Assembly: GCA_964658305.1 (NCBI GenBank)
Contig: OZ210885.1
Span: 16,058,001 to 16,122,000 of the forward strand
Origin: Leptogorgia sarmentosa
Taxonomy: Eukaryota
DNA: 64,000 bases
Reading direction: 5' to 3'
The position numbers and the translations under genes are program-made. Every line of letters starts with the position of its first letter. Within the stretch, counting starts at the first letter, position 1. Shown piece by piece: positions 2,499 through 50,813 of the stretch. The notes below the pieces were generated by a model, which searched no databases, was not told the origin of the DNA, and saw nothing but the letters and a program-made list of their open reading frames with translations.

Positions 2499-3031
2499 TC
2501 TTATTTTGAGTTGAACGACGATGGGCTTGTCGACTCCGACGGTGCAATGGAGCCCGGACCCAAACAAGTCGCCGCACTCAGGGGGGTCACTACAGGTGAC
2601 GCGGATCGACAGGGGTCATGAGCACCTCCCCTGTGCCATGATGCAACTGAACGATCCGGTGCTATCCACCTTCACGCCCAGGGATCCCTAACCTAATGGT
2701 GGTGAAATGGTCAGATGATGATGTTAAGCTAGACGATTACAACATGAGCAGCAACCCCTATATCAAAACCTGTGCCACCCGCTTGGAACAAGTCCAAGCG
2801 AACCACAGGGCAAAAATTGAAACAAACAAACTACCCAATCCGATACAGGCAGTACAACCAATAAAGGCGACCGCCAGATCTTCATGGGAGGACAATACAG
2901 ACCAACATTAAACATAAAGACAAATGTGCTGTCCAGTCCAAAACAACAGACAACTATACAAAGATAAACAAACTAGTCCAGAAGGCGACGACAGTACAAC
3001 CAGTAAAGGTGACCGTCGAGCCCCTAGACCA

Positions 3032-6000
3032 CTACATTAAACACAAAGAACGAAAAAAGGAGAAGAGGGAGGAAAAAGAGAAGGACTCAGGTGATAAAAT
3101 CCAGAAAGCAGAAAAGACGACGGGCATGTGGCTAGTGGGAGAGAACCCAAATAAAATAGTATTCACTGGCAGTGAGGGAGCATTCGGCCGGAATTTACAA
3201 AAAATTGACTGGAACCAGTCAAAGACCGATACGGAAAATGGGCAAGAGGTGAATAGATGTAGCAAATTCTCTTGCTCTCCACAAAAGCACAGCAGGTCGA
3301 CTCTCATCCCAAACCGAACCAAACGGTCAGTCGTGGGTAGGATGCCGTGGAAGGACAGCCAAGCAGTGTCTTGGACTGACCTCACAAAACGCCACAGACG
3401 AAGCGAGGCCCACACAGCTTGCCATGCGACATTAATACGCCATTCTCTAAACTTGTTCACAGAACGATGTTCAACGGCGGAAGAGTGCCGGAGTAGGGAG
3501 TACCCTGTACGAGCAGTCAGCTCGGAGAGAGGAAGTAGTTGTCCAGAAGGACGAGGGATGACCCATTCGCCCTGCTCGCTCCTACCCTTCAAGAGGACAC
3601 ATGCAGTGAACACGCCCCGATAACAGGGAGGGAGTTTTTTTATTAGGTACGCTGCCAGAGGATCACGAGCGAGTACTTGCGGTACTGACTGACCAAAAGT
3701 GCCAACAACAAGGTGAGCAAAAAGGGATGACCACGGGTGGCTTTGATGGAGAAAAAAACGACCGAGCCATACGGCACGAAGGGACAAAAGTTTATTATTA
3801 ATGTCGACAACATTCAGGCCCCCGTCACTAATGGGCTGAACGACTGATGTGCGAGCCATCCACTCTTTCTCTTTTTTCCCCAAACGAAGGGAAAGATGAT
3901 CTTGTTGACTTTAGCTACAACTACCTTTGGCATGTCGAAGGCCGTTGCCTGGTACCAAAATAGCGATAGACCGAGTGTGTTGACTATCAAAGCTCTACCC
4001 CGAAACGACAGTTGACGCTGTTTCCAAACACCCAACTGCCGCTCCAACCTTCCTACTAGGGTGTTCCAGTCAGCTCCCTCTACATTAGCTATACGGCAAC
4101 CCAGCACGGTCATGGACTCGCTTGACCAATTCAACTGGATTGGTAGATTGGTCCGGCCCTTCCAGGACCTGAAAAGAAGACCATTGCTTTTATTGATGTT
4201 GAGCTTCGCACCGGAAGCCAGCTCATACCGTGCAAAAAGAGAAAAGAGTGACCGGAGGGCTTGCTCCGAATGGACGATGATGGATGTATCATCCGCGTAC
4301 TGGAAGATTTTGATTGTCTCCCCGTTTGGCAACAGGAAGCCGTCGACATGTAAGTCTTTTTTGATGGCACACGAGATGGTTTCAGCCACAATGATGTAAA
4401 GTAAAGGAGAGAGAGGACACCCCTGACGAACTCCCCGAGTAACATTAAAAGCACCACTGGTAAAACCGTTTACTAAGACACAGGAAAATATATTGGTGTA
4501 TAGGAGCTTGACCCACCCACGAAAGGACAGACCAAAATTCATTTGCTCTAAGACACGTAGCATAAAACCCCAATCAACCCGGTCAAAAGCCTTTTCTTGA
4601 TCTAGAGATATGACTGCACCTCCAGTATTGTTATGATTACAAAGATTAACGATGTCCTGTAATGCTCGAACATTCAGGCCAGAAAAACGTCCAGGAACGC
4701 CGCGGGCTTGGGATTCGGAGGTAACTGATGATAAGACGGTTTTGAGGCAATTTGTAAGCACCTTGGACAAGATTTTATAGTCAGTGCATAAAAGAGAAAT
4801 TGGTCGCCAGTTTTTAACATCTAGTCTGTCATTTTTCTTATGTAGGAGGGAGATTCAACCAGTGCGCTGGAAAAAGGAAAGAGCACCTTGTGCCAGACAA
4901 TCATTGTAGACCGCTACTAAGTCGGGACCCAAGATGTCCCAAAAGGACTGATAAAATTCATAGGGTAACCCGTCCAGATCTGGAGATTTGTTGCGTTTGA
5001 AAGAGTTTAGCGCACGCTGGCATTCCTGTAGAGTCACCTCGCCTTCACAAAGCTGGGCTTCCTCTGCAGACAAGGATTGCTCTAAGCTATTTAAGAAAAA
5101 GGACTGATCTGGAGAAGATAGAATGGACGCAGAAAAAAGTTGCACATAAAAAATGCACCAAACTCGCAAGATCGCAGAAATAGATCTTACAATGGTGCCT
5201 TGTGCGTCTCGGATGCCGGTGAACAGGCGCCGCGATGCGTGCACCTTCTCTTGTCTAAAGAAAAAGGCAGAGGAAGTTTCACCTTCCTCAGCCCACTGTT
5301 GGTTGCCCCGAATACGTGCACCTTGGGCTACGTGGTGGTGTTCGAGCTCCAATTTATCCTGCACTTCCTTTATTAGGTGATTCACATCCTCACCGTCAGC
5401 AACTCGTTTATGAAGGTGTTCAAGCGTGGATTCTAAATCACGCATACTCAAGCGCCTCGAGCGAGCCTTGCCCCGAGAAAAATGACGAAGAATTTCCTTC
5501 AAACGAGCCTTGCCCGCATCCCACCAAATAGCTAAGGACGGAAAGGTATCTTTCTCAGATTGCCACGAGACCCAGAAGTTACAGACTTCCGTGCACAGAG
5601 TCTCTTCACGCAGCAAAGATGTATTGAATTTCCACACACCAGGACCACGTCGCGGTAAAGATGGAAAGGCCACGCGGAGGAAGACATAAGAGTGGTCTGA
5701 GCGGAAAAAAGGGAGAATGGTTACTTCTGAAACGTGTTCATGTAATAATGATGATATCCAGAACATGTCCAGTCGGGAAGCCTGGGACCTGTTGGCCCGG
5801 CGACACGTATAACCTCGCTCAGTTGGATGCGCCAAGTATCGACCAGATCGCACCTATCGGTCAGCGAAGAAAGGGAGGCAGGCCAGTTGTAAGCCCAAGG
5901 GGAGTCGGGGTTACAGCCCAGTCGGTCTATATGCGGATCAACTACCACATTGAAATCTCCGCACAAAAGAGTGGAAAAGGAAGGGTCAATCATCTGATGT

Positions 6001-6410
6001 AGAGATGAAAAAAAGTCCTCGCCAGCTTGTTTCTGATTTGGACCATGTATATTTACAACTTGAAAAGTGGACTCAAGGTCAACATGCTTTAAACACACGA
6101 CAATGACCCGGCCACTCGTGTCCCTGTTAATACTTTCCACCTGAAAACATGGCTTAAATAGAATCGCTACCCCCACACTACGAATAGTGCCCGGGGAAGA
6201 TTCAACACCGTATTGTTGTAAATTATTGTGCTCTAGGGTCTCTGTCTGTAGCCAGGAGAAAAACTCGTCTTCAGAACGACTATGCGTTTCATGAAGAGCT
6301 ATGATGTCAGGTTTGGCACAATTCAGCCAGGAAAAAAGAGTTTTACAATTAGGACCATTGCATAACCCTTGAACATTTAATGTGATTATGGTTACTTCTT
6401 GGTTAGCCAT
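3032..6410 (-). pseudogene. Tx1 ORF2 (APE endonuclease + reverse transcriptase), frameshifted
   Basis: TLNVQGL, GDFN, SDH, SLDQEKAFDRVDW, GVRQGCPLSPLLY, FQYADD and a C-terminal Cys/His motif (CFCGEQENLLHLFTSC), spread over four ORF-track frames. Confidence 0.9.
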
Positions 6411-6464
6411 AATAAATGTGTGAAAAAGATGTAACTATTATTATTCTATACAAACAAGGGGGAC

Positions 6465-7724
6465 TTAGAAGCTACCATCATCAGAAGTGACAGAGTCACT
6501 TGCAAAAAAGCGACGGAGAGCAAGAGTTTCTTCAAAAGCTTGATTTACTTCTGGTCTGAAAAGATTCGAGGGGCTAGCTACAGTAGAAGAGCTAGCACCA
6601 ACCGGGGCGAAAGGAGTTAGAAGGGAGTCCGATAATTCGTTTCCGATGTCTGAGAGCAAGCCATCAACAATTAAATCAATATCTGACATTCCCTCAATAG
6701 AAGGAATGCCAAACGTTAGAGAGGGGATATGTGGTCCCTCATCCTCCGGCAGGGGAACATTCTCAGGTAATGGTCTCTCGGAATGCTTAACCTCTGGTTG
6801 GATGGTCGTAGGGGGCTCTTCACGCGAAGATGCCTCTTCACTCTCCACGTGAGAATTCTTGCGGAGAGGAGAATGTGAACGGGCCTTGTCAGTTGACTTG
6901 GAAGTTCGATGGCGCTTAGGACGAGGCGGTGGGATAGGGGGGCGTTCTTTGGGCAGGGAACCACTTGCCTCTGGTGTCTGGGACTCACTAGCTCTAGATG
7001 GAGCAAGAGGCAAACCCGAAGAAAGGGCGCTGCCCAAACTTCCGGAGGTCGCGCCAGGCTCAGAGGTCACTGTGTCCAACAAATTGGCCATGGTCTCCCG
7101 AACCTGCTCGTTCTCTTGGCCCACCGTGGGCCGTACCTCACTACCAGGTGTTTCATGGCTAGCCTGTGTTGACCCCTCAACAGCAGGCCGGGATAGAGCG
7201 GGGCAAGCCGACCGATTGTGGCCTTCCTGTCCACACCCGAAACAAAGACATTTTTGGCCCTTATGATGCACGAAGCACCAGTGGCCGGCAATTCGCATGC
7301 GAAAAGGAATGGGTTGCTTTATTTCCATTAACACATGCCTGACCCCAGTATAAATGCGAGAATACACCTCGGATGTGATTTTGCGGATTTCACCGAAGTC
7401 ACTGAGGACTTTGGAGATCTCTTCATCCAGGACCCCGTAAGACAGGCGGGTAACATTAACCCAGGTGTATTTGGACACCGACGGGAATTTGACAGGGAGG
7501 CCCCGCACGGTTAAACTCGTATGTTCGGCAACCTCCATCTTCTGAGCTCCCTTGAAGGTGACGCGGAACCGACCAGGGGCCATCATCGCGACAGCCTCAA
7601 ACACAGAAATATAATCATCGACCTGCCCTCTGAACTCATCGATGACCTCCTTTACATTTACTCTGTGCGCCTCGATGCTGTCAGAAAGGATGACATCGCA
7701 GGTGCGATTGACGTGAGGAATCAT
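6465..7724 (-). CDS. Tx1 ORF1 nucleic-acid-binding protein (CCHC zinc knuckle, disordered C-terminus)
   Basis: Open ~420 aa frame with YTGVRHVLM and CFGCGQEGHNRSAC, directly upstream of ORF2. First ATG at 7724. Confidence 0.85.
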   Translation of the reverse strand: MIPHVNRTCDVILSDSIEAHRVNVKEVIDEFRGQVDDYISVFEAVAMMAPGRFRVTFKGAQKMEVAEHTSLTVRGLPVKFPSVSKYTWVNVTRLSYGVLDEEISKVLSDFGEIRKITSEVYSRIYTGVRHVLMEIKQPIPFRMRIAGHWCFVHHKGQKCLCFGCGQEGHNRSACPALSRPAVEGSTQASHETPGSEVRPTVGQENEQVRETMANLLDTVTSEPGATSGSLGSALSSGLPLAPSRASESQTPEASGSLPKERPPIPPPRPKRHRTSKSTDKARSHSPLRKNSHVESEEASSREEPPTTIQPEVKHSERPLPENVPLPEDEGPHIPSLTFGIPSIEGMSDIDLIVDGLLSDIGNELSDSLLTPFAPVGASSSTVASPSNLFRPEVNQAFEETLALRRFFASDSVTSDDGSF

Positions 7725-7816
7725 CCTCACCACACTATATTACTATACTTTATATTATATATATTTATACTATACTATATTATTATATTTATATATTTAT
7801 GATTTACTAAATTGCA

Positions 7817-8311
7817 TTCGAGAACCAAAGTCTCGAAAAAAAGGAAAGAGAAAAAAAGGAAAGAAGAAAAGGACAAATTTAACTTCGAGAACAAAAAGTC
7901 TCGAAAAAAGTATAACTAACTTCGAGAACCAAAGTCTCAAGAAAAAGGAAAGAAAAGAAAGACTTAACCTGATTCGAGAATGAAAGTCTTGAAAAACAAG
8001 TTAGCCAAATCCGAGAACCGAAGTCTCGAAAAGCAACCTAAATTAATTCGAGAACCAAGTCTCCACTACCAACTTGACTAACTCGAGAACCAAGTCTCGA
8101 AAAACAAATTAACCTAAGTCGAGAACCAAAGTCTCGAAAAACAACTTAACTTAACCGAGAACCAAGTCTCGATAACTAACTTAACTTAACCGAGAACCAA
8201 GTCTCGAAAACACACTTAACTTAACCGAGAACCAAGTCTCGATAGATAATTTAACTTAACCGAGAACCAAGTCTCGATAACTAACTTAACTTAACCGAGA
8301 ACCAAGTCTCA
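7817..8311. repeat. Array of ~13 palindromic CGAGA-ACCAAG-TCTCG units in the Tx1-B 5' UTR
   Basis: Units recur every ~35 bp (longer spacing near 7817-7970) with variable A/T-rich spacers. CGAGA and TCTCG are reverse complements. Confidence 0.9.
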
Positions 8312-8485
8312 AAGCATGAAAAAAGAAGGGAGGAACGAATCTCTCCAGAAAAGAAAGGAAAAAGGAGCCTGTCCTAGCAATTCCCCCTAGGGGGCCTCGC
8401 AGTCAAGCACAGCCACGCGGTGCACCACCAAGGCCGAAGCCAAGGAGGCCTGAGCCGACTGAAACGATCCAAAGGAATGGACTAG

Positions 8486-8672
8486 TCAGCACAGGGACGG
8501 ACACCACAGGAAGACAGCACAGGAACGGACTGGACAGCACAGGAACGGACTGGACAGCACAGGAACGGACAGCACAGGAAAGGACAGCACAGGAAGACAC
8601 CACAGCACAGCAACGGACTGGACAGCACAGGAACGGCCAAGGCAGGACAGGACCACCAGACTGAACAGCACC
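8486..8672. repeat. GACAGCACAGGAACGGACTG-type minisatellite in the Tx1-B 5' UTR
   Basis: Visible 12-20 bp tandem units. The same repeat occurs at 22843-22992. Confidence 0.85.
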
Positions 8673-8744
8673 ACGGATGACGGAAAGGATATCTTCTGCA
8701 GCAGGAACCAGACTTCGGTAGGAAGACCACCAACTTTCAGTATT

Positions 8745-8767
8745 TCTTAGCCAAAAGGCCGAGAAGC
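8745..8767 (-). pseudogene. U2: U2 snRNA 5' fragment (nt ~4-26)
   Basis: Minus strand GCTTCTCGGCCTTTTGGCTAAGA matches the conserved U2 5' end. It is preceded by a remnant of the upstream motif GCTAATGGCAGCGCGAAGGAGG. Confidence 0.85.
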
Positions 8768-9129
8768 CTTCCTCCTTCGCGCTGCCATTAGCGATCGATC
8801 TCTCAGCCTGCACCGTGTTTGCACGTTCCGACAATTCTCGACCATATTCAATAAGAGTTTAGGAAAAAATCATGAGAATGTAAATCTCATGAACAAAAAT
8901 CCTGTTTTCTTAGCGAGCGAGCAAGCCACACAAAACTACATTCAACACATGAATGCTAGGGCCCTGCTTACCATACAAGTATAATTCGTGGTCGGTCATC
9001 TGCACTGAATATGTCATTATATACATCTCCTGCCAAATGCCGTATCGCGATGATCTGTAAAGGCAAGAATAACTTGTTAGAATTTTGAACTGATAGTGAG
9101 AAATCTTCCCCCAATAATGAAATTGGGGG

Positions 9130-9282
9130 AAGTTGGCCGTACTCGGCGGTAGTGCAATACCAAGACAACCCGTGGCCAGGGCGAAGCAAACTTCAATCCC
9201 ATGGCCGAGGTCCAAAAATCAGTTTAATATATGAGTTAGGACATTGCCTAACACATCAGATATTAAGCTGATAAGAACAGAT
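9130..9282 (-). pseudogene. U2: U2 snRNA 3' portion (nt ~38 to end)
   Basis: ATCTGTTCTTATCAGCTTAATATCTGAT, Sm site GATTTTTGGA, and stem-loop IV CTTGGT-ATTGCACTACC-GCCGAG. Confidence 0.93.
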
Positions 9283-9576
9283 TGTAACAAATTTATTCAA
9301 AACAAGAATTAAATATTTACATTTCTAGATAATTACTATATAAGCAGGCTATAAACACAGCTGTTAAATTATACGTACAAAGTGAGAAATTGCTGATCTC
9401 ATTAGAGAAGGATGATCGACTGGATAGTGTTTGTATTGTATTTCATGTGATTGGAATGATTTAAGATATCACTTATGGTGTGATATACGTATTAACTAAG
9501 AAAGGACGACAAATAAATAGAATTTCTTTTACATGAGTTGATGATGATATAAGATTAGTATAATAATGATATTATA

Positions 9577-10849
9577 TTATATAATATTATATATGTGAGT
9601 TCCATTTAGTCTAAATTTTGATGGTCCATGTGGTGGTAGTTCTGCAGAACCACGAATCACATGCGAGCAGCAGAGTTTCCTGAAGAGGGACTTGTAGGAG
9701 TGGGACATTTGTAATTGGTTTAGGACCGCCTCGTTATTGAGATGCCATGAGCCGAGGGCACCAATTACAAAACCAAACATGTTGCATTTCATACCTTGTT
9801 GATGGAATAAGGTTTTGAGGTGATTATACTTGTTGACTTTGTTAAGGTTAGCGGTGGAGAGAGCGTCCTCACCATTGTCAAACGGGCACGTCACATCTAT
9901 AACAGTAACTTCATTGTCCTTGGAGATGACGATGTCAGGTCTGCATTCAGTGAATATCCATGAGGAACCATTGCTGAAGGCATCTTTAACCAGAGCACAA
10001 GCGACTTTTCCTTGGTCAGGAAGGGACATCAATTTGGCCGACGCGTTGTCTTGGATAAGATGATGGAAGAAAGCGGAGCAATTTTTGGCAAGGCAGGGGC
10101 CTTTGGAATTGGTGGAGATGGATGGTGCTTCGTTGTCGGGGACGTTGAAGGTGATGCCAAGTCTGCGACATGCTGTTCTAGCTCTAGTCCAGAGGGAGTG
10201 TGTTCGGTATCTAATGTGTGAAGGGTGGAATTTGCCACGTCTTGAGCAAGATAGAAATTCGCCAGTTAGGGAAGGAGATGGATCGGCTTGGGCAGCAAAC
10301 CTAACGGATTTGAGAAGTTCACCTTTGTCAACAGCACTGACGAATGGATCGGAGGACAATAGCATTTTCATAGCTTGAACAATTGTTTGGGCGTTGACTT
10401 CAAGAAGAGGACCTTGAAAACCAAGGCCACCAACTCGGGAAGAAGCAAAGATGATGTATGAGGTCGCTCTTAGGGGAAAGTTGCAGATGGATCTAACAGT
10501 TTCGATCAGTTTCTTCTTGTATTTGGTGAGTGATTGTTTTTGGGGCAAAGGGCAAAGGTTAGACATGGTAAACAAATGTTCTTATGCAGTCAAGTTTTTG
10601 CGATGGGGCCAGTAGTGAAGACTGGATTCCGTCAAGATCGATACAGAGATCATCAACCAACGATTCTAGGGACTGGACATCACAGAGGATGCCAATGGGA
10701 ACACCAAGATATCGATAGTGTTCATGTTCTTTCAGGCAGGGAATAGCTTTGTTTTGGACTCGGAGTTGGTTCAGTTCGATGTTGTTAGGGTACCTCTTGT
10801 TGTAAGTCATACTTAACGACGCGCACTTATCTTGACGGAAAGACAAACC
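9577..10849 (-). pseudogene. Utopia-like ORF C-terminal part (RT thumb + restriction-like endonuclease)
   Basis: ORFs 10559-10906 and 9577-10575. PD..D motif present; the zinc knuckle region appears deleted just before RPDIV. Confidence 0.82.
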
Positions 10850-12000
10850 AATTATTATTATTATTAATGGTATAAAATACACACAATGAATTGAATAACG
10901 GTGCACTTACAAAGATATGAAAATTACTACTACAATTTTTATACATAAAAATAATAAGTTTTTACGTTCTAATTTAAAAAATAATTACATTCTTACTAAA
11001 CTCATTAAGTATCGCACTTAAGTTTTGTCACTAGAATTGTTATATAAAGCAACTGTACTTGGAAAGAAACTACGACGGTATCTTTCGGTTCGGCATTTTA
11101 TTAATGTTAAGTTGTTCGAGTTTCTTAGTTGGTATTCATTGGAGCTGGCCCTGGTCAGGGGAACATATTTTGACAGTGGTCATTCCATTTGTATTTTTTC
11201 CAAAGTGTCAACACAAAGTTGTTCACGCCTTTCATCCAATCTGGAACACCCAAGTTGTATTAACGCCTCCTTATAAGAGTACCCCGGTAAAATAATCTTC
11301 AGCGCTCGTCTCTGCACTCGTTCAACCTCATTAGCAAGATACAAGGAAATGGAATGGTGCCATACCACACAGCAGTACTCTAGAACTGATCGTATTAGGG
11401 CAAAGTATATTATCAATAAGTCCTCCGCGGGAAAACCACCACGCCGTAATGTTCGGATGATGTAATTCATAGGCAAACTCTTTTAGGATACGGCAGGGGA
11501 TATTATCTGGGCCGTGAGCTTTGAAGGGTTTAAGAGCTTTGAAGGGTTTAAGAGGTTCTAAGAGCTTTCTAGCAACTTCGTATGGTTGGGATGGGTTCTT
11601 TGGCTGGAAGAAATGCCGGGAGTGCTGTTACGTCAAGTGGTGGAATGTCACTACTGACCGATGCATAGAATACATTCAAAGCTTTCACTAATTCTGATTG
11701 GTTCAGGGTTCTTCCATCATGCTCAAGCAAGAAAGAATGATTCTTTTCAGATTTGCCTGCCATTTTGTTCACGATTTTCCACCACATACGGCAGTCATCC
11801 TTCTTTAAATGTTTCACCTTTGTTTTGTAATACGATGTTTTCCTCACTTTGATTTCATGTTGGACCTTATATTTTAGTGTTTTCCACAAGGTTGTGTTTT
11901 GGCCATGAAACGCCTTTTGGCGATCTTTAATAAGTTGTTTAATTGCAGGTGTTATCCATCATTTATCCGTATAATGGCATGTTGACGTCTGTTGTGGAAA
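10850..12000 (-). mobile_element. Deleted CR1/L2-group LINE nested in the Utopia-like element
   Basis: IYFALIRSVLEYCCVVW...VERVQRRALKII RT C-terminus and a (TAA)n tail at 10850-10867. The host ORF resumes at GLSFRQDKC. Confidence 0.75.
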
Positions 12001-12559
12001 GACGGCGGATGAACTTGCAACATCAAGGAGTTGTTGGAGTTTCTCCTTCATTTTAGTGATTATTACGAGGTCGTCGGCATATGATTATTACAAGGTCGTT
12101 GGCATTATGATTAAGTCGGCGGATGAACTTGCGACATCAAGGAGTTTCTCCTTCGTTTTAGTGATTATTACGAGGTCGTGGGCATATGCAAGAACTGAGA
12201 TTTCGCCATTGTGATGTTTAGTTGGACCGATCTGGTGACCTTTTAACGAAATGGCACGGAGGATGATTTCAATACACAGGTTGAACAGTATAGGAGACAG
12301 TGGGCAGCCTTGCTTTACACCAGCTTTGATGGGAATGCTGGGGGTGGAACTAACAGGGGTACGGACTTCAGTGGATGCATTTGTGTAAATGTTTTTAATA
12401 AGGTTTACAATTGAGTCAGGGATACCAAGGTGGGATAAGGTGATCTCAATGACATTGTGAAGTATACTACTGAATGCATTACGTAAATCGAGCCAAGCAA
12501 GGAAAAGATTCTTTTGGTGGCGTTTGGCATCAAGTACCAGTGACTGTAGGATGTGGGTA

Positions 12560-15500
12560 TTATGTTCTATGTATTTGAAAAAACCCAACCCCATACTCAC
12601 TAATTACATGTGTTTATATACTGTTAATAATTAGCATAATTATGACGTAGCATGCATAATAATATTACAACCCCCTTTTTATAGCTAAATCTCTAATCTA
12701 TATTTTTGTTCAAGTTTTCATCATAGATAAAAAATACGTGTCCGAGCTATATATATAGTGAATAGTTTCTTAATATTAATGTTGTTTAACTACTTATATT
12801 AAATTTAAATGTTTCTATACATAGTCCTTATACCGTTCTGGCTTCCTTACAATCCGTCCTGATCTTGTCTTCACGGGCAGTTCTGTTTCATCCGTGGAAC
12901 GGAGGATCTCTTGGCTTTCTTCTCTTGTTTTTTGCTGTTGTGATTGTTCATGCGGTTCATTCATTGTTGGTGAATTGACTTTGCTTTCTTCCTGTGACGG
13001 ACTTTCGGTTGTTTCCCTTACAGATGGGGATTGTGGAACTTGATTATACGTTTTCCTCAAATGTACTCTGTTTCTTCGGTATTGTGCACCATCTTCTGTC
13101 ATAATGTTGAAACTCCTTGGGGTATCTTGTGACAATAGCAGGTTTCCATTTTCCCTCGCGCTGAACAAAAACATCATCGCCTGCCGATAAATGTTCCAAT
13201 GGTCTCGATGATCTATCGTAGTACTTTTTCTGTTCAGCTTGTTTTCGCTTTAATCTTTTCTGAACAATTGTTGGATTGACCATCTTTGGCTGCAGCTGCT
13301 CAGTTGAAGATGGCATTTTTGATCGTAATCTTCTTCCCATACTCAATTGTGCTGGCGATCCCACGTCGTTAATTGGCGTATTTCGGTGTTCCAATATGGC
13401 TAAGTATGGATCTTGATGATCTTTTCGGGCATTCGATAGAATTAACTTCACTGTTCGAACAGTTCTTTCCGCTAGGCCGTTCGTCTTTGGATACAATGGA
13501 CTCAAAGTTACGTGTTTAAAACCCCACGTCTTGGCAAATTCGGCAAACTGTCCGCATGAATACTGTGGACCATTATCGGATTTGATGACTTCTGGTATCC
13601 CATGTCTTGCAAAAAGAGTTTTCATCTTGTCGATTATTACTGCGCTCTTCGTGCTTGAGACTTTAAATATCTCCCAGAATCTGCTGTAGTAGTCAACGAC
13701 TAATAGATAATCATCACCGTTCCAGAAGAACATATCTGTGGCAACAATCGGCCATGGATATTTTGGAACTTCGTTTAAAACCATGGGCTCTTTCTGATTG
13801 CTGGATCTGTATTCTGCACATATAGTACAATTCTTGACCACCGACTCGATATCTTTATTTATGCCTGGCCAAAAAACCAATTCACGAGCCTGTTGTTTAC
13901 TTCTCCCCACGCCCATATGACTTTGATGAATCTTCTTCAACACGTCGTCTCGTAATAAGGGTGGAATGAATATCTTGTTACCCTTGAATACCACGCCTTC
14001 AATTACTGTTATCTCCTCTCTGTAATTCCAGAGTGAATATAATGAACTTGGGAGATGATCTTTGTGACTTGGCCAACCTTCAGAGATAATCTTTACTAAT
14101 GTTTGCATTGTCCCATCTTTACTTGTTTCTTCCTTGATCTCTCTCACTTGTCGTCCGATACAGGTAGGGTTGAGATCATAGAAATCGCATGATGGTCCAA
14201 ATCTAGTGTTTCTTCTTCAGATTTGCAAATGGATAAATGGGCTCTTGACAACGTGTCAACTAAATATAGTTCCTTGCCAGGTCTATATTTTATCTCGATA
14301 TCAAAACTTTGTAAATTCAACAGCATTCTTTGCAAACGAATTGGCGCTTTATCCAGAGACTTTTTCGTAATGGCTTGAAGTGGCTGGTGGTCTGATTCAA
14401 CTACATAGATATACTGATAGAACCGATTGCATCCAAACACGACTGCTAAGAGTTCTTTTTCTATCTGTGCATATCTGGTTTCTGCCGGCGTTAGAGATCT
14501 TGAGGCATACACAACCGGCATATTTGATTGGATAAGAACTGCTCCTAACCCAGATTTCGACGCATCAACCTGCAGCTTCACTGGTTTCGTCACATCGTAA
14601 TAGGTCAACACTCCAGGCTCGGGATTTGCAAGGATGGTCTTAATCTTGTCGAACGCTTTTGCGTGTGTTACTGACCAATGCCATGATACATCTTTTTTAA
14701 GTAATTCTCGCAGTGGTGAAGTGATTTCAGACACGTTCGGTACGAATTTGCTCACATAATTTACCATTCCGAGAAGTCTTTGAACTCCTTTTTTATCCTT
14801 TGGTTCCTTCAGGTTGAATTCCTTCCGGGGTAAACTTGTGTCCGATGTAACTAACATTGGTACACCTGAAATGGCACTTCTCTAACTTGAACTTTAGATT
14901 GCACTCTCTTGCTCTTTCCAACGTAGCCCTTAGACGCTCATCGTGTTCTTGAAGTGTCCTTCCCCACACGAGAATGTCATCAATATCGGTGTGTACTCCC
15001 TGAATATCTTCGAAAATCTGGTGCACACGTTTATGAAATACTTCCTGGGCACTTCGAATTCCAAATGGCATATGGGTAAAACGGAAACGTCCGAATAGTG
15101 TGTTGAAAGTAGTGAGTTTAGCACTCTCTTCGTCAATGGGTATCTGCCAATATCCCGATCTTGCATCCAGCGTGGAGAAATACCGTGCCCCTGGCATTCG
15201 AGCAGCAATTTCTTCTATTGTCGGAAGTTGGTAATGCTCTCTTTTCAATGCTTTATTTAGATCTTTGGGATCGATGCAGATGTGCAGACGTCCATCTTTT
15301 TTCTGGACCACAACCATTGAGTTGACCCAATCTGATGGACCATCGACCTTTTCTAACACTCCTTGTTTGACCATGTCGTCTAGGGTTTTAGCTAGTTGAT
15401 TTCGCACAGGGTGTGGTACTTTGCGAGGTGGATGAATGACAGGGTCTGCATTGGGATCAATTTCCATATGATACGGTCTCGAGAGACAGTCCAGTCCGGT

Positions 15501-16961
15501 GAATACATCAGAATATTCTGCTTGAATCTGTTTCTGGAACTCGTCTTCTGTAGTTTGCTGTGCTGTCATCAAAGGATCCCTGTCTGCCGATTTTACTTGC
15601 AATTCTTGAGTAAACTTGATGAGGTTTAATCTCTTACAGGCTGCTGTGCTGAGTACTGGTTCACTGGGAGACTCGGTTATGTAAAATTCCAGATCATACT
15701 CTTCTCCTCGATGCTTACATTGTAGTTCGCATACAGCTTTAACAGGAACTGGTTTGCCATTATATGCGATGAGATTGAGTGTTGGTTTTCTTAGCGGTAT
15801 TCGCGTAGAGCTCGCTAGTGTTTTGTAGGTCTTGATTGGAATAACATTCACCTCTGCTCCAGTGTCCAATTTGATCTTAACTTCAGTATTGTTCACAGAC
15901 AAAGTTACATATTCAGCTTGATTGTTACTGCTTGTTTTTGTCTCGTCTACGGCGGCTGTTATCCAGTCGAGAAATAAGTAATCATCACCAGTTTCTTCAG
16001 GTTTTAAATCTTTTGTCTTGACTGCATTTAATTTTCCGCTCGAGCGACACATCTTTGCATAGTGATTTAGCTTCTTACATTTATTACATTGACGACCAAA
16101 CGCTGGGCACTTTTGCTTTGGATGTTTATTTCCACAATTTGTACAAGTCTTCCAGGTCTTGTTTCCATTTTGATCTTGACTTGGCTTTCTGTCTTCTGTC
16201 GGTTCGCTTCTTGGCACATATTTCTGTCGCGGTTTGTGTTTTGTTGATTGCTCCGACTTCTTTGTCCTTGTCGAATAGTTTTAATTGTTGTAGAGATAGT
16301 TCATCTGCTTGACATATTTCAATCGCTCGTTTGAGCTTCAAATCCGGCTCTCGAAGAAGCCTTTCCCGGACTCTAGTCGAAACTATTCCGCTTGCGATTC
16401 TGCTGCAGATTAAATCCTCTTTGATGTCGCCCCATTCACAGCTTGAAGCCAGATTCTTGAGTTCTGTCACGTATTGGTCGATCGTTTCAGATTGCTCTTG
16501 ATTCCTCGTCAAAAATCGATGTCGCTCTACGATTAGATTTTTCCTTGGTTTGCAATACTGCTCGAACTGCTGAAATAGCATTCTCACCATCACTATTTCC
16601 TTGCCGTCTTTATCCAAATCAAACTCGAAAGTATCTCGGATATCTTGACCTTGTCTGCCTATTGTGCACATGAATACAGCGACTTTTTCCTCTTTGCTTC
16701 TGTCCTTGCATGTTGCAACTAGGTAGTATTGCATACTTCTTTTCCATTTCGCCCAAGCTTCGGACAAATTGGTCGATTCAAAATTGAGCTCGCCTGGCCC
16801 TCGTATATCGTTTATCTCGTAGCTGAGAAATTGGCCACACCTGACACCATGTTATGTTCTATGTATTTGAAAAAACCCAACCCCGTACTCAGTAATCACA
16901 TGTGTTTATATACTGTTAATAATTAGCATAATTATGACGTAGCATGCATAATAATATTACA
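12560..16961 (-). mobile_element. Gypsy/Ty3 LTR retrotransposon (short ~110-bp LTRs), complete but frameshifted
   Basis: LTRs at 12560-12669 and 16850-16961. PBS TGGTGTCAGG at 16849-16840, PPT AAAAAGGGGG at 12680-12671, TSD GGTA(T). Gene order gag(CCHC)-PR(LDTGA)-RT(DIDD)-RH(DAS)-INT(SDNGPQY, NGLAER). Confidence 0.93.
12815..16790 (-). pseudogene. Gypsy gag-pol polyprotein (frameshifted)
   Basis: ORFs 16126-16767, 14793-16217, 14144-14857, 13044-14147 and 12815-13177 carry consecutive domains, ending in TRSGRIVRKPERY. Confidence 0.88.
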
Positions 16962-17107
16962 GGTATGTTCGTAGCAACCCTCTGTCGGACAAGCACATTT
17001 CTGGGAGGGAGACATGAAGTTGTTATTGATGGAGTAAGTGACCAGACGGTTTGCCATGATGCTCATAAGCAATTTGTATATACAGCTCATAAGGGCAATA
17101 GGACGGA

Positions 17108-17933: not shown

Positions 17934-17950
17934 TACTACACTTGATCTTA
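17934..17950 (-). pseudogene. U2: U2 snRNA internal fragment nt 22-38, including the branch-point recognition sequence
   Basis: TAAGATCAAGTGTAGTA lies between the Tx1-C 3' end and the Utopia-like 5' end. Confidence 0.88.
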
Positions 17951-23410: not shown

Positions 23411-23413
23411 GGA

Positions 23414-43932: not shown

Positions 43933-46900
43933 ATGGCGGCTAGGCCTGGAAGGAAGCGAAAACATGAAAGTGAACTAAGACGAACAAATGACGCCCGACA
44001 AGAATTGGTTTTTAATTCAAAGTATTCAAACAGAGTTATTAAATCACAACAGACATGCACTGTAAGAGAGAATCGTTGAAAATTGGAAAAACTTTTAGAA
44101 CTTTCATCAGTTGGAAATGATACAAATGTTCGCGCTCAGAAAAGAAATCGTATTAAAGGATTATTGTCTGTTTGGGATATGTTAACAGCCGATGCAGTTG
44201 GGAAAGATGGCAAGGAACACATGAGCTGCTTTGTTGCGTTTGATGATGCATTAGAAATGTACTATGACTCTCAAGAAGAATTCATCAAGAGGCCACCATA
44301 TATAAATACAGACAAGGACCAATTTATGTATGCTCTTCTACATGAACAATGGGGACTGTGTGTGTACGTTTTAACTCATGAAGATAGAAAGAAACGATTC
44401 ATTGTTATGCAACCTGATGAAGTTGATATGGAACTATTTTTGGATGAGATTTGCCTGAAAAGTGAAGATCATTTTCCTTTCAGAGTGTATTTAGACAAAA
44501 CATTTGTGCAGTGTTTGCTTTCATCCATGGATTCAGAATGGGACAAAACTGTTGCACGAGTTCTTATTGGAGTTGATCGATCAGCAGAACAACTTGATAA
44601 TCTTGGCATTGATGGAAGAGAAATTTCAAGAAATGTGGAAAAGGTAATTATATAATGTTATACATTTTAGTGAGGGTCAGCTCTAGATGAAGACTATTAT
44701 TTAGGGAATATATTGTTTACAGTATTTTATGTTGACCTTGTAAAAAATATGGTAGAAAATATCTGCAATTTCATATCTTTTCCTTACTAGAACATTTTCA
44801 TCAATGTATATGGGTTTGACCCCCACTAGTATATCCAAAATATTAACAAATCCCACTTTAACCCCTAATGCGCTGAAATCATCTGTCAAAAATGGGAAGG
44901 TAATACAATTAATGTTAAAGTTTGCACCAGGGGCAGATCCAGGATTTTTCATGTTAGTAAAAAAATTAGAGCGTCAAAGGCACGAGGCACCTAGGGGAGT
45001 CTGTGGTCATCCCTCCCCCCATAGAAATTTTTGAACATCAGAAATGCCATTTGCAGTACTCTGAGGGCAGTTTCAACATAAAATTGACCTCACAAAACAA
45101 GATACAATTTCGGGAATTTTAGCCTCACCGACTCTCACAACTCGTTTCCTAGGGGATACGAAACGAGAAGTGCTTGCAGAAATATAAACATAATTATGAT
45201 CATTTTATTATGGGTTGCTATTGATAAAGTCCTTCAACCTTTGACCAGTAGTCTTCAGTGTCATATTTCTCAATGGGCATATCATCTACCCTAGCTATAC
45301 TGTATATCTACTTCGTTTTGTTGTAAGATTATAGCCTAGACAACTATTATAAACAGGGGAATGAACAAATCCTTATCAGTCATCTTTGATATTGAAAGCC
45401 CTTTCACTTTTGACCAATTTACTGGTCCATCACCGTAAATATATGCAAATATATATAAAGTTCATAGCCAAATCACAATCGAGGTGCATGTATTTATACA
45501 TATGTATGGCGCGCATCTTGTTTGTTGTATAGAGATATTGGTATTCTGCCTAAATAATGAAATTGACATATCATTTCGACTTACCTTATTGCAGTACATT
45601 ACTGGTTCTTTTGATCTCGCACATCACTCTTCAGAATATATATCTCGGCACGAATATTTTGACTCAAACTGTGGTCCGTGCTACTTTAATATGGCATCCA
45701 GGAACTGCTTGACCGTACTCTCCAATATGGAGTCGATTTTCTTCACAAGAACAGGCCAACAGCCTTTAAATACTGTACCACAAGGAGCCCCCTGACTTTT
45801 GCTTTAGATCCACCCTTAGTTTGCACTGGATAGTAATGAGTATAACTTGTTTTCTGAAGGTTATGAAAGGAATTGATGATATTTCAAGTGCCAATCATAC
45901 AGCAAAGGATCTTGTGAAAGCTCATTTGGAGGGGAAAAAAGAAAAGTTGGAAAAGGCCAGCCCATGTTATTGGGGATTTAGACTCTGGAATAAAAGTAAC
46001 AGAAGATAGAATTGGTGAGATTGAAAAGTTGTTGAATTGTGAAGATAGTGCAACAAAACAACGTTTAGATCAAATGAGGAAACGAAAAGCCACACAACTT
46101 GTTGAAAACCAGAGAATAAAGCGAAGAAAACTGGGTAACCAAGGGGCTCCAAGAAAATTGGATGAGGAAGATGAGGAATTCCTTGCAAAATGTGTGGAAG
46201 ACAAGGCCACCTATCATGGCAGAAGACATGACTTGGTAATGTATACCAACCGCCGTGTTAAATCTAGAGATCTGATTAACATTGCAAATAAACGATTAAA
46301 GGATGCTGGGAAAAGGTTAATAAAATCAGGTACCACTGTTTATAATCGCTGCAAACCAAAGAATACCCGATCAGTACAGGCATCACGGCATATTGGAAAA
46401 GGGCTCATGTGTTTCAAAAAACCACCTAAAGCTGAAGACAATGAAAATGAGAACACTCACTACCAGAGGGCTCATGTCAACAATGTGAAGATGAGTATGT
46501 TTTCTGAAAAAGCTGAAAATGCAAAGGAATATTCTCTGATTCACAGTATTGATGACAAAGCATATATTCGTCCAGGTACCAGTGAAGGGTTTTCGAGTGC
46601 TCGTAATCAGCACATCCTCACACTCTCAGAAGCTAGTAAAGCCAGAAAATTACCAAAATATGATTGGCCTGAGAAGATGATGTACCAAACACCAGGCTCT
46701 CATCGAATTATGACTAAACAAAGTGTAAAGGATGATGCTGGTAATGAAAAGCTAATTAATGATACTGATCAACATTTTGTGTTTGTGCGACCCAAAGCCC
46801 TTATTGAATCATCTGGATCAGTATGGGCAAGTGAGATGGTCTTGCTAAGACATACCAATCCTAACACATTTTCACGACCACACATTTTTATTTGAAGATA

Positions 46901-48647
46901 TGACTACTGATGCAGATCTTGAAAAACTTGCGCTGAACGATAATGATGAGACCTGTAAGTTTATTAATTATGAGCAACAACGATTGAATGTTTTGAGTTC
47001 AAGACTACAAAACACCATTTACAAGATAGCTGAGCTGCAAAGTGATTTTAGTGAGGCAGAACAAACTCTGTTAAATAGCAGAGTGAAACCTGTTCTTAAT
47101 GTGTTGTTAGAGAAGGCTAGCACAGAGCCAGATAATTACATCTACACCTTGAAGGAACATTGTGAACAAGTTAAGGAATGTTGCAAGAAGTTGCTGCAGG
47201 TGATTGCAGACCTTAAGGTTCCCCCTGTGAAGCCCAGAGTAGCATATCTTACTGATGCTGGTCCTGGTGTTGGAGTTTCCAACTTTCAAGTGAGATTTAG
47301 AGATGCAGAGATTGCCAGAATGTACAACTCGGATTACAGAGTAAGAGTGCATCGCTCAAGAGGAGACAGCGGACAAGGGGAAGCTGAACGAACTAATTCT
47401 GCTATCGCAGATTCAATTGTTGATGGTGCAACAATTCAGTGGGAAACAATCAAGAGATAAGAAGGAATGACCGCTGCACAAGTTTCGCAGATGTCTGTAA
47501 AGGACTTTGAGGAGTATGAGAAAGACAGAATGACCAAGAACGCGTGGACTGTTGCTGACGAATTAGTGAAACGAATTGATGGTGCCCCAGTCCTAGGCGA
47601 TTATATTGACTGCCGGCTATCTGACAAAGCTGAAAACATGCTCTTTTTCAACAAGGAATATCTTACCGAGTTCCAACATGCCTACCACACAAGAAAAAAA
47701 TCAACAGAACACCAGGGTCAGGTTACATGGAAAAAGTCTGAAAATTCCAGCAGCAACATTACAGAACTGGCGAGCTCTTCACAGACTATATCAAGTATGG
47801 CTGTTCTAATGACACTGGCGTGACATGTGATTTTTGTGCTAGGCATGAGTGGACTGGGCTTCCTGCACAGCGCATTCCACAACCACAACAAGATATTGAA
47901 AACCCTGGTCACTATTTGCATGTATTTGAAACACCACTCACTGATAGTGAAGGTGAGATAAGGGCAGTGGATGACTGCCAACCCAGGGTTGTCATTTCTT
48001 CTTTATACAAAGATGGAAAAATATCTCTTGATGACATAGATATCATAGAAGAAACTGCAGCCAAACTTGCCATTGATGAAGCCCTTGTAGTTTCTTGCAT
48101 TACTCATTTGAGAGATTTAGAAGCCAATCGAGACAGAAGAGAACAGGAAAAAATGAGAAATAAAGAAAAGATAGCAAATAGCACATTTGAAGACTATAAC
48201 TGGCTCGAACTTGTCTTGTCAGGAAGGATAAATAAACTTTTAGTCGTAGAACTTGACAAATACATTGAATACCACAAGCTAAACATGAAGTGCAGTAAAA
48301 AGGACAAAATTCGTGCAATAACCGTGAACGTCCTGAAGCAAGAATCAATGGAGAAACAAAAGGATGCTGTGAGACAAGTTTCAGGCCAAGTAGAAGATGA
48401 TGGCGACCTTTTGGACAATGCTGAGTTAGGTAGTAACAATAGTGATGATGAACATACATCCGAAAGTGAAGCAGAATACAGCAATAATGGTGATAATAAT
48501 GACGATGAAAGTGATGATAATGATGATCGTGATCTTGTGTTTAAAGACCTTGATGAAGAAAGCAGTAACTTTTCGCAATCTGGACTTATTGTCACCACAA
48601 GGTCAGGGCGAAATGCTGGTTCGTGGAAGCTTGCATTTACCGATTAG
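43933..48647 (+). pseudogene. Zator/TP36-like DDE transposase with a C-terminal SAP-like domain; one intron (~44644-45859), stops and frameshifts
   Basis: Candidate triad HSIDDKAYI / YLTDAGPG / DSGQGEAERTNS. SAP-like WLELVLSGRINKLLVVELDKYIEYHKL...KKDKI. Acidic tail. Confidence 0.7.
44928..45818. mobile_element. Non-autonomous hAT-type MITE in the Zator-like transposase intron
   Basis: 8-bp TSD GTTTGCAC (44920-44927, 45819-45826). Imperfect TIR CAGGGGCAGATC / GATCCACCCTTA. Confidence 0.75.
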
Positions 48648-50787
48648 AGATGCCAGAGGTATGAATTTATAACAGTATTAAAATTTCTATTTTTGGGTCG
48701 ACGTTGGTCACTTTAATATTTGTTTTTGGTATGACACTTTTAAGTGAATTTTGACCATTTTGAACTATATTAAAATTGGAACATTTAAGTTACTGTATGT
48801 TACCTATAATAAAATACTATGTAAGTGCAAATAATAGCTAATAAACGAACCCAGTTATTAAACATATACATGAAAAACGCAATGATGAAAACAAATAAAA
48901 TGGTCAATTTGAGTTAAGTTTACAAAGGCAGCTTCAAACTCTTGGATTTCTATTAGAGGTTGGGTAAAAAAGAATTGAACAACCAGAGCAGTTGGGTAAT
49001 TTTTTTATGTATACTTTTTTTAATTTCTCTTCGGTGCCCCCCCGAGGTATAAATAATGAACGGTCCCTTAGCAAGGATCTTATAGTCTGCGCACAGCAGC
49101 GAAATAGGACGCCAATTCTTGGTATCCAATTTATCATTCTTCTTATACAGCAGGGTATAAGGCCGGTACCCTGTGAAAAAGACAAGGAACCACGAGAAAT
49201 ACACGCATTGTACATGTCTACCAAGTCACTGCCAAGCATGTCCCAAAAATGTAAATAGAACTCGTACGGAAGCCCATCAATACCAGGAGACTTATGCTGG
49301 CCAAAGCTCTCAAGGACAACCAAACACTCCTCGACCGATACATCTCCCTCACACAGAGAACCCTCGCGATCCGACAATTTAAGATCCAAGGAGTCCAGGA
49401 AGAAGTCCTGGTCAGGGGGGAGACAGTACTGCAGTGGTAAACAACACTATATAGAAAATACACCAAACACGGATGATGGCGGAGATGGACCGTACCACCA
49501 CGCCTTGAGTGTTTTCTCAAGCTGAAAGAAGTATGCCGAAGACGTCTCACCTTCTTCTGCCTATCGCTCCTTTGCCCGCAGCCGAGCACCATGAGCCCAA
49601 TGGGAATGCTCCGATTGAAGAGAAGCTTTAACATCTGCAATGAGATGGGACACATCCTTACCATTATTCTCACGACAATTGAGATGGAACAAAGTACACT
49701 CTAGAGATTGAATACAAGACCGACGAGACGAAGCCCTTTCCCGAGAATAACGACGCATTAACCGTTTGAAACGCGTCTTACCAGCATCCCACCACATGGC
49801 AAGTCCGGAAAAGAATCCTTTTCTGCCGTAGCAACAAACTCCTCGTCAGACAAAAGGGACGAATTCAATTTCCATACACCCGGCCCCCTATTGGGTAGGC
49901 TAGGGAGATTGACCTTCAAAAACACATAGGAATGATCGGATCTAAAAAAGGGATAAATGTCCACATCACTCACTCCTGCAACAAGATCAGATGAAATCCA
50001 AAATATGTCGAGGTGAGATGCTTGAGAGCCGTTTGCATGATGCCAAGTATATTCCCGCACCTCTGGATGCAAAAGATACTCCCGGAAGAACAAAAGATAC
50101 TGTGGAAGCTTCCTCTCTGGTCAATGTATGGGCCTCAGACTGGACAATCCCTGGCACGGCCTTGGAAGGACACTTATCAGTGAAGTGACCGACCTGACCA
50201 CAAGAAAAACAGGGACGCTTTTGTCCCTTATAGTGAACCACACAATTCTGGCCCGCAATCCTTATGCGCATTGGAATATCCACCCGAATATCCATTAGTA
50301 CATGGCGCACCCCAGTATAAATATTTGCGTATTGTTCTAACTTGAATACGCGAATGTCGCCATATGGAGCTACAGCTCGGCGAATATCATCCTCCGGCAC
50401 TCCGTAGGATAGCCGGGAGAGATTAAGCCACTTATATGTGGTAATAGGCTGATATTGAACAGGATGCCCTCGAACGAGACAACCTGCAGCTTCAAACACT
50501 TCAAGCTTGCGGGAACTCTTACAATGTAGACCACCGCCTTAGCCTTACCCCCTAGAGGGCCACGAAGCATAACCCCAATACCAAGGTCAAGGAGTGATGA
50601 ACAGACACCAAAAAACAGCAACAGCAAACAGAACGTACTTCAATCAACACTGCACAGGACTGAGGACTTCACTACACGTGACGAAATGAAACAGCACCAA
50701 TACACCAAAAAAACCACGAATCTTCTTCACCAACGAAAACTCACGAACTGCTTCAACTTCTGAGAGGTCCAATCCAAATAAGAAATA

Positions 50788-50813
50788 TCTTAGTCAATAG
50801 GCCGAGAAGTGAT
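50788..50813 (-). pseudogene. U2: U2 snRNA 5' end (nt 1-26)
   Basis: ATCACTTCTCGGCCTATTGACTAAGA, with 3 differences from the canonical ATCGCTTCTCGGCCTTTTGGCTAAGA. Confidence 0.85.

Follow-up and report, generated by a model that had tools for sequence, protein, structure and literature searches.

Does a family of retrotransposons without long terminal repeats (non-LTR) home to a site in the U2 small nuclear RNA (snRNA) gene other than the one used by the known U2-specific element Keno? The question is raised by a 64-kb window, the whole stretch of DNA analysed here (contig OZ210885.1, positions 16,058,001 to 16,122,000), in which three consecutive U2 snRNA gene units on the minus strand each hold an L1/Tx1-like non-LTR retrotransposon. 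The genomic scope is this one window; all relevant features lie on its minus strand, and plus-strand coordinates therefore fall from 5' to 3'. From the sequence we consider it probable that these copies represent an L1/Tx1-like family with an apurinic/apyrimidinic-type endonuclease (APE) that inserts inside U2 genes, its bottom-strand nick likely falling between U2 nucleotides (nt) 21 and 22.

The order on the minus strand begins with a Tx1-like element (element E), a U1-like gene, a U2 spacer, U2 nt 1-26, copy CD of the family and U2 nt 22 to about 120; it continues with a U2 spacer, U2 nt 1-25, copy B, U2 nt 22-38 and an element with a restriction-like endonuclease (RLE) that carries a nested LTR element; and it closes with U2 nt 39 to the 3' end, a spacer, U2 nt 1-25, copy A, the sequence TAAGA and copy Z. 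The U2 parts are the following.

50788-50813, minus strand: decayed U2 nt 1-26 (ATCACTTCTCGGCCTATTGACTAAGA), 5' flank of copy CD
23409-23511, minus strand: U2 nt 22 to about 120 (Rfam), 3' flank of copy CD
23088-23400, minus strand: U2 spacer of 313 nt, upstream of copy B's U2 piece
23063-23087, minus strand: 5' flank of copy B, U2 nt 1-25 with divergence in its 5' part
17934-17950, minus strand: U2 nt 22-38 (TAAGATCAAGTGTAGTA), bounded by copy B (its 3' end) and the RLE-type element (its 5' end)
9127-9281, minus strand: U2 nt 39 to 3' end, the remainder of the gene in which copy B and the RLE-type element lie
8771-8792, minus strand: conserved U2 upstream motif ...ATGGCAGCGCGAAGGAGGA, directly 5' of copy A's U2 piece
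8746-8770, minus strand: U2 nt 1-25, 5' flank of copy A

The flanks of the copies are genomic U2 gene units, because they include both Rfam U2 matches of the window (9127-9316 with 107 bits and 23409-23532 with 58.5 bits, both on the minus strand), an upstream motif of 22-23 nt common to the copy A and copy B units, and a spacer of about 300 nt that is 85% identical between the copy B and copy CD units and has very high depth in four sequencing runs. Among the runs, X1-X3 may come from the assembly's own sample, X4 and X5 belong to another study with the same organism label, and X6 carries another label. Summed contig depth in these runs, which is not copy number, was 20,953 for the U2 spacer bin in X1 against 281-2,160 in element-internal bins, and 358 against 2-72 in X4.

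Two side observations concern the upstream region of the copy CD unit. The U2 nt 1-26 piece is separated from the U2 upstream motif (50814-50878, minus strand) by a 41-nt stretch (TTTTTCACCTTGCTTTTCTCGCTTAAAAGATGGTGTGGAAC), which resembles a U2 5' part in decay, and then by a repeat of the 12 nucleotides with which the upstream sequence ends; the arrangement recurs in X1 and X6 contigs among the matches listed, and is thus multicopy. Within the conserved upstream motif itself (about 50905-51300, minus strand) sits an element of about 400 bp with terminal inverted repeats of about 30 nt (AATTTCGATTCCGTCGACGGTCGGACACCTC...), a tRNA-like stretch inside and a 9-bp duplication, GGCGGCGCG, on its flanks.

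The four copies and their parts, including the untranslated regions (UTRs), open reading frames (ORFs) and reverse transcriptase (RT), are located as follows.

2504-8745, minus strand: copy A, full length, about 6.2 kb
7984-8310, minus strand: 35-nt tandem repeats in the 5' UTR of copy A
6465-7739, minus strand: ORF1 of copy A, 424 aa
5721-6434, minus strand: APE endonuclease of copy A (Pfam Exo_endo_phos)
4855-5853, minus strand: linker of copy A
3814-4854, minus strand: RT of copy A (RVT_1)
3032-3910, minus strand: zf-RVT region of copy A (Pfam)
2499-2503, minus strand: TAAGA joint, the duplicated target, from the 3' end of copy A to the 5' end of copy Z
1173-2498, minus strand: copy Z
17951-23062, minus strand: copy B, about 5.1 kb
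22354-22680, minus strand: tandem repeats in the 5' UTR of copy B
21175-22266, minus strand: ORF1 of copy B
18532-21015, minus strand: ORF2 remnant of copy B, RT and zf-RVT intact as an 827-aa frame
49067-50787, minus strand: 5' half of copy CD, with 5' UTR, ORF1 remnant, linker and RT start (residues 198-553 of the relative P0006)
50146-50520, minus strand: ORF1 remnant of copy CD
23512-27008, minus strand: 3' half of copy CD, with P0006 residues 553-1123 and the 3' UTR
27009-49066, no strand assigned: 22-kb insertion that splits copy CD, not retrotransposon sequence

The junctions of these copies with U2 carry the argument. On the 5' side, the sequence of U2 nt 11-25, GGCCTTTTGGCTAAG, has three minus-strand matches, those at 8746-8760 and 23063-23077 without mismatch and that at 50789-50803 with two mismatches; 0.13 matches were expected, and three were reached in none of 100 shuffles. 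In the alignments U2 ends with ...GGCTAAG before copies A and B and with ...GACTAAGA before copy CD, so that the motif matches and alignments bear out the three 5' junctions after U2 ...GGCTAAG(A), at nt 25/26, that a first-pass annotation of this DNA had proposed. A fourth 5' junction, that of copy Z at 2498, follows TAAGA, and all four thus follow TAAG or TAAGA. The first ~6 nt after TAAG vary among the copies, and the next ~40 nt are conserved.

On the 3' side, the alignments show ...TTCAACTCAAAA / TAAGATCAAG (the slash marks the junction), with U2 resuming at nt 22, at the three places where CTCAAAA/TAAGA junctions had been noted. The sequence CTCAAAATAAGA lies on the minus strand at 2499-2510, 17946-17957 and 23507-23518; as a repeated element has this motif for its conserved terminus, the count is no independent test. 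The 3' UTR of copy A is conserved up to its terminus ...TTCAACTCAAAA, and the last 17 nt, TTCAACTCAAAATAAGA, are identical in the alignment of all three copies with 3' ends. Conservation of the 12 nt directly before TAAG is perfect and extends to the diverged copy CD, whose neighbouring 60 nt differ. After the 3' end, U2 continues from nt 26 onward in two of the three copies (17945 to 17934; 23506 to 23409), and in the third the 5' end of copy Z follows: copies A and Z are joined head to tail through TAAGA alone, with no U2 unit between them. The junction alignments likewise agree with the duplication of 4-5 bp, TAAG(A), and the near absence of poly(A) described earlier, the tail consisting of only four A's. 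All copies stand in sense orientation within the U2 gene units.

Could the U2 nt 1-25 pieces be something other than insertion flanks, namely heads captured by RT template switching onto U2 snRNA? Captured heads are known from SINEU and Tx1 elements of crocodilians, and elements mobilised by Tx1 have been described with heads derived from U2 (PMC4494074; here and below, papers are cited for excerpts of their text). In addition, the 5' UTRs of copies A and B contain 9-10 tandem units of 35 nt, each with a small hairpin (CGAGACTTGGTTCTCG), which are faintly like U2 nt 5-25 (TTCTCGG...TTAAG); since the alignment score was reached by 1 of 500 shuffles for copy A and by 83 of 500 for copy B, this likeness appears ambiguous. 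We give the captured-head account hardly any credence, as non-transcribed U2 upstream sequence lies directly 5' of U2 nt 1 in copies A, B and CD and the remaining U2, from nt 22 to the 3' end, is found downstream of the elements.

Whether the common site reflects repeated insertion or multiplication of a few events depends on how the copies differ. Copy A spans residues 8-1105 of P0006, a 1,183-aa relative, at 58-71% identity, and its coding region is broken by frameshifts and one in-frame stop. Copy Z consists of about 110 nt of the 5' end followed by an internal deletion into the endonuclease/linker region (P0006 residues 23-444), and so is without the 5' UTR/ORF1 region; nothing of it was detected below about position 1173. 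Most of the endonuclease region is deleted in copy B and all of it is gone in copy CD, whose 3' half is further interrupted by about 1.7 kb between 24918 and 26611. The first-pass annotation had counted "C" and "D" as separate copies. These are halves of one copy split inside the RT-coding region, D halting at ...ILAK and C restarting at VLTNR, both at residue ~553 of P0006; the two lineages are therefore A/B/Z and CD. Its suggestion that two diverged subfamilies keep the site thus holds as to the number of lineages, and its grouping of A/B/C against D does not. The insertion between the halves is bounded by terminal inverted repeats of 19 nt that match perfectly (GGGACCGTTCATTATTTAT...) and is flanked by a TTA duplication of 3 bp, the latter being reminiscent of PIF/Harbinger-type DNA transposons; its plus-strand ORFs at 45918-48647 gave no Pfam match.

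Copies A and B share 76-87% DNA identity, copies CD and A 48-61% protein identity, and the internal deletions differ among copies. We take the copies to be independent insertions, judging from their sequence: the divergence, the differing deletions and junction nucleotides, and the A-Z joint rule out simple array duplication as the only cause. A related account would have one or a few old chance insertions in a U2 unit, made without site specificity, multiplied by unequal crossing-over and gene conversion. It would suit the occupation of three consecutive U2 units, and in the runs the tandemly repeated U2 unit has very high depth, arrays of this kind being known to amplify their contents. We nevertheless regard it as highly unlikely. 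Copy CD shares only about 50-60% protein identity with A and B while the spacers are 85% identical, so that divergence is greater in the elements than in their flanks; the copies are unlike one another in junction nucleotides and internal deletions; copies A and Z are separated by TAAGA only, with no U2 unit; and the identical site is found in two lineages.

The type of element is given by its domains. ORF1, with a weak CCHC match, precedes an ORF2 with APE, RT and zf-RVT. In copy A, Pfam detects Exo_endo_phos (E 3.9e-7), RVT_1 (6e-33) and zf-RVT (1.6e-7), and the motifs TLNVQGL, ETH, GDFN and SDHS are visible both there and in P0006. The zf-CCHC matches of ORF1 are below the Pfam cut-offs (E 0.0027-0.019), and a C..C..H....C string can be seen in copy A. 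P0006 itself contains PF03372, PF00078 and PF13966 and aligns with human L1 ORF2p over residues 5-881 (E 2e-91). An ORF2 with N-terminal APE, RT and a C-terminal Cys/His zinc-binding region is characteristic of L1/Tx1-like elements, and the earlier assignment to this APE-type group is supported by the Exo_endo_phos match on copy A, by RVT_1 and zf-RVT, and by the alignment of P0006 with L1 ORF2p.

The sequence is eukaryotic. Among named organisms, the octocoral Paramuricea clavata supplies the best protein relatives, and the nearest Atlas cluster is mostly labelled Cnidaria, a phylum being given for only four members; these relatives suggest a cnidarian origin. Close relatives (P0006-P0014) are 60-84% identical. 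The P0006 cluster contains six members of 1,183 aa, P0006 included, and because these relatives are intact the family has probably been active recently somewhere. More distant relatives were found at 80 metagenome loci, 30-52% identical to the query. The 16-nt tail motif, with at most three mismatches, occurs at 14 of these 80 loci in matches that are all chance-like, and one 24-nt blastn match reached E 4e-4. In viral_contigs and genome_contigs there were no matches to the 22-nt junction pattern and no relatives of P0006.

A quick maximum-likelihood tree of 88 rows, from which 14 of the 80 metagenome loci were omitted as their match was too short, places copies A and B in an 18-row clade of database proteins (SH-aLRT 100) among elements flanked by U1, U2 and U5 genes. 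This clade is sister (support 99) to one that holds elements ending at U1 nt 1, and it stands apart from the clades of L023/L025 and of L035/L067. These four metagenome loci are inserted in U2. L025 has the 3' junction A-run/TCTGTTC and the 5' junction GGCT/, after U2 nt 22; L067 has its 3' junction at U2 nt 36 (A-run+GTA/TCTGTTC) and its 5' junction at GGC/AAAGATG..., which is nt 21, or nt 27 if the next bases are U2 with one mismatch; the 5' junctions of L023 and L035 follow U2 nt 41 and nt 50. Other metagenome elements end directly at U1 nt 1 (L009, L031/L032) or lie beside U5 (L007, L015).

The window itself contains an element of the U1-associated kind.

About 57000 to 52018, minus strand: Tx1-like element E
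52017 to 51812, minus strand: U1-like gene (Rfam)

Element E (38-48% identical to P0006) ends with ...ATATCCAACAT directly at nt 1 of the U1-like gene, whose Rfam U1 match of 54.5 bits is below the cut-off (E 8e-11). L009 (5700-5900) and L031 (4880-5160)/L032 end likewise, ...CTTAAACATAAAAA/AACTTACCTG. The lineage of E, L009, L031 and L032, sister in the tree to the family at U2 nt 22, looks from these ends as if it homes to the 5' end of the U1 gene.

The sequencing runs contain further 3' junctions. For the 3' end of copy A, X1 yields two contigs, of which one, at depth 3,076, runs on as TCAAGTGTAGTA (U2 nt 27-38) and the other, at depth 68.9, shows the A-Z joint of the window itself. In X4, both contigs found continue through U2 nt 27-38, and the longer then enters sequence like the 5' end of the window's RLE-type element. 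X5 and X6 give one contig each, in which the element is followed by TAAGGTCAAATGTATTA, U2 nt 22-38 in decayed form, before non-U2 sequence begins. For the 3' end of copy B, an X5 contig among the matches listed stays in U2 past nt 38 (...TCTGTTCT). One X1 contig, also among the matches listed, joins 17952 to 23139, the intervening sequence not being reported; this appears to fit a U2 unit without a copy at nt 21/22. Summed depth of the element 3' end is about 1/5 to 1/7 of that of the U2 unit in the runs, a rough figure and not a copy count.

Depth is also uneven along the element: the conserved 3' UTR (17997-18390, 2572-2760) has a summed depth several-fold above that of the coding part. Among the matches listed, a common 3' UTR variant has a 61-nt duplication (joint 18343 to 18283, depth 2,759 in X1). 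The excess could stem from many 5'-truncated copies or from a short non-autonomous element with the same tail. A structure predicted for the 3' UTR has 57 pairs, 3 of them with double changes; because these are too few and only three sequences were available, we claim no 3' UTR structure.

Where the bottom strand is nicked has to be weighed against Keno. Keno is a Tx1-clade, APE-type element specific for U2 snRNA genes (PMC4640811, PMC4494074, PMC6136364), its 3' target being given as TCTGTTCTTATCAGTTTAAT, '37 nucleotides downstream' (PMC6136364); U2 downstream of the RLE-type element Utopia starts at nt 39, and the 3' flank of Keno is identical (PMC4640811). With its 3' flank starting at U2 nt 22, the family in the window occupies a site distinct from that of Keno, as the first-pass annotation had supposed. 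The copies might still result from a Keno-type integration in disguise, with the bottom strand nicked at nt 38/39, U2 nt 22-38 carried as a tail of the RNA and the top strand cut at nt 25/26; what looks like a TAAG duplication would then be a target deletion of 12-13 bp refilled from read-through RNA of the donor U2 gene.

Several points weigh against a nick at nt 21/22. The disguised integration would give a product identical to the sequence observed, so that the nick can be placed at either position. Metagenome relatives at the Keno position have 3' junctions at nt 36-39 and 5' junctions at about nt 21-27 (L025, L067), and the latter make it plausible that Keno-type insertion, too, cuts the top strand at nt ~21-27. 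Complete pairs of junctions are all from the single 64-kb window, and the possible own-sample origin of runs X1-X3 limits their independence. None of the 80 metagenome loci belongs to the family at U2 nt 22, none carries its 3' tail or UTR, and none has a junction at U2 nt 22. Every copy in the window is defective, so the witnesses to activity are the intact P0006-type relatives and no others. Placement in the Tx1 clade is indirect, snRNA-flanked relatives serving as a proxy.

We nonetheless consider the disguised Keno-type integration unlikely. Its case is helped by the X5 and X6 contigs, in which a decayed nt 22-38 tail passes into non-U2 sequence exactly after nt 38, and by the high-depth X1 contig, which ends at nt 38; such sequence after nt 38 could, however, just as well stem from an element that later entered the Utopia/Keno hot spot, a case of which is found in the window. 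It also needs an extra assumption, obligatory read-through together with internal priming. The perfect conservation of the last 12 nt before TAAG, even in copy CD, indicates a functional 3' end right at CTCAAAA/TAAG and points away from it. Moreover, the family falls outside the clades of the Keno-position elements, and those elements end in A-runs, which this family is without.

On our preferred reading of a nick at nt 21/22, integration might proceed as follows: (i) the nick would free a bottom-strand 3' end (...TCTTA-3') that primes reverse transcription on the element RNA; (ii) its precise start would have as one likely reason the read-through of the RNA into downstream U2, which could pair with the target, and as an alternative or joint reason the positioning of the enzyme by the conserved terminal TTCAACTCAAAA and the 3' UTR; (iii) the top strand would be cut 4-5 nt further on, after nt 25/26, yielding the TAAG(A) duplication. 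Priming by U2 pairing, by recognition of the 3' end or by both is suggested because the junction is exact and A-poor and the last 12 nt are conserved in copy CD. TAAG would be recreated on both sides of each insertion; a second copy could therefore land beside the first, which would account for the tandem of A and Z. By analogy with other site-specific APE elements, the endonuclease would be the main seat of specificity. The target site encodes U2 stem I on its 3' side together with the region of U2/U6 helix I; because this region hardly varies, the target could not easily mutate away, and the multicopy U2 array would tolerate insertions. The earlier candidate idea that the element is transcribed from the U2 promoter with a 25-nt leader would be favoured by the sense orientation of all copies just after nt 25; contrary to it are the long 5' UTRs with their 35-nt tandem repeats, and the varying first ~6 nt after TAAG seem poorly compatible with a seamless U2 leader.

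The second occupant of these genes lies at the Keno/Utopia site.

9282-17933, minus strand: RLE-type, Utopia-like non-LTR element between U2 nt 38 and 39
16932-17783, minus strand: N-terminal part and RT start of the RLE-type element
9577-10581, minus strand: C-terminal ORF of the RLE-type element with the RLE motif
About 12560-16961, minus strand: nested LTR-type element with 110-nt direct repeats
13044-14216, minus strand: integrase of the nested LTR-type element
14793-16280, minus strand: RT of the nested LTR-type element

This element shares a U2 gene with copy B and was inserted with neither duplication nor deletion of U2, its flanks (5' ...GTGTAGTA/ and 3' /TCTGTTCTTATCAG) placing it at the Utopia site, nt 38/39. 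The ORF at 9577-10581 has the motif ...RPDIV...IDVT...K..KY and matches the RLE region of R2 proteins (9nl3, E 8.9e-10), and the RT start is only ~790 nt from the 5' junction; as in Utopia, there is a C-terminal RLE and an RT with no APE domain. The excerpts of PMC4640811 name Utopia hosts with no Cnidaria among them, and if the host is a cnidarian the element may extend Utopia's range. It also contains a 231-nt internal tandem duplication (17112-17573). Elsewhere in the window, a 768-aa open frame at 58051-60357 (minus strand; RVT_1 1.3e-39) is only ~25% identical to the family at U2 nt 22 and by its sequence belongs to another clade of LINEs (long interspersed nuclear elements); a weak ORF1-like match is present at 61529-61933.

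A wider reading, which we advance tentatively and hold to be slightly less probable than its opposite, is that the copies represent an undescribed, probably cnidarian Tx1-like lineage cutting U2 at nt 21/22, within a radiation of elements aimed at U1 nt 1, U2 nt 22, U2 nt 36-39 and U5. Such a radiation, if true, would amount to a natural series in which APE endonucleases on a single protein scaffold have been re-aimed. If a nick at nt 21/22 is the true account, the U2 genes here are contested by two unrelated site-specific retrotransposons 17 nt apart, which bears on how a low-copy essential U2 gene family carries several competing parasites. With site-specific non-LTR elements, nature offers a way to place several kilobases at a single defined address, and gene-insertion tools are being sought among them, up to now chiefly from the RLE-type R2 (PMC13580325). 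Exact-address elements of the APE type are fewer, and how their small endonuclease domain is re-aimed is poorly understood. The family would add a new address inside the 40-nt stretch used by Keno and Utopia and, with relatives apparently aimed at U1 and U5, offer a compact comparative series in which to map the residues behind APE target choice.

Among known systems, one parallel is that of R1 and R2 in insect rDNA, which target a single conserved site in a multicopy RNA gene arranged in tandem and occur as tandem or nested copies; read-through sequence may guide their priming, and R2 uses an RLE and a 5' ribozyme. An Rfam scan of the whole window at E <= 1, 5' UTRs included, gave the two U2 matches, the sub-threshold U1 and chance-level snoRNA, and no ribozyme family. 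The parallel with R1 and R2 is a mechanistic analogy only, their clades and targets being different from those of the window family. Co-transcription of R1/R2-type elements with the host gene may occur (PMC4494074).

Another parallel is that of Tx1L of Xenopus laevis, Kibi, Koshi and Mutsu, target-specific Tx1-clade families named in PMC4494074, with which the family shares the ORF2 order of APE, RT and C-terminal zinc-binding region, a sequence-specific target and precise 3' junctions without dependence on poly(A). For such elements PMC4494074 states, citing Takahashi and Fujiwara 2002, that it is the endonuclease that determines the target. In contrast to this family, the targets of Tx1L, Kibi, Koshi and Mutsu are a DNA transposon, microsatellites and 5S rRNA. 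With Utopia the family has in common the host gene and the homing to a conserved stretch of a multicopy snRNA gene; however, Utopia has a C-terminal RLE, a single ORF and the site nt 38/39 (Kojima and Jurka 2015, PMC4640811), whereas the family has an N-terminal APE, an ORF1 and a site between nt 21/22 and 25/26.

The searchable literature held no description of a LINE at U2 nt 21-26; Repbase and Dfam were outside its scope, and an existing Repbase entry is therefore possible. The nearest counterpart is Keno, whose reported hosts are frogs, fish, lancelet and hydra (PMC4640811), the Hydra entry being named in PMC4494074, so that cnidarian members are on record. Like Keno, the family is APE-type and L1/Tx1-like and inserts in sense orientation into animal U2 snRNA genes, destroying the copy that is hit. 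Unlike Keno, whose 3' flank TCTGTTCTTATCAG (nt 39) lies 17 nt downstream, it has the 3' flank TAAGATCAAG, starting at nt 22 in both copies with downstream U2 and in contigs of the runs. It further differs in its 4-5 bp duplication, in lacking an A-run and in falling outside the clades of the Keno-position metagenome elements, which stand proxy for reference Keno sequences. The shared spot 17 nt upstream of the Keno/Utopia spot is likely to mark a new cutting specificity of a known kind of element, and the family is, on present sequence, best described as a new target-site variant of the U2-homing Tx1-like LINEs.

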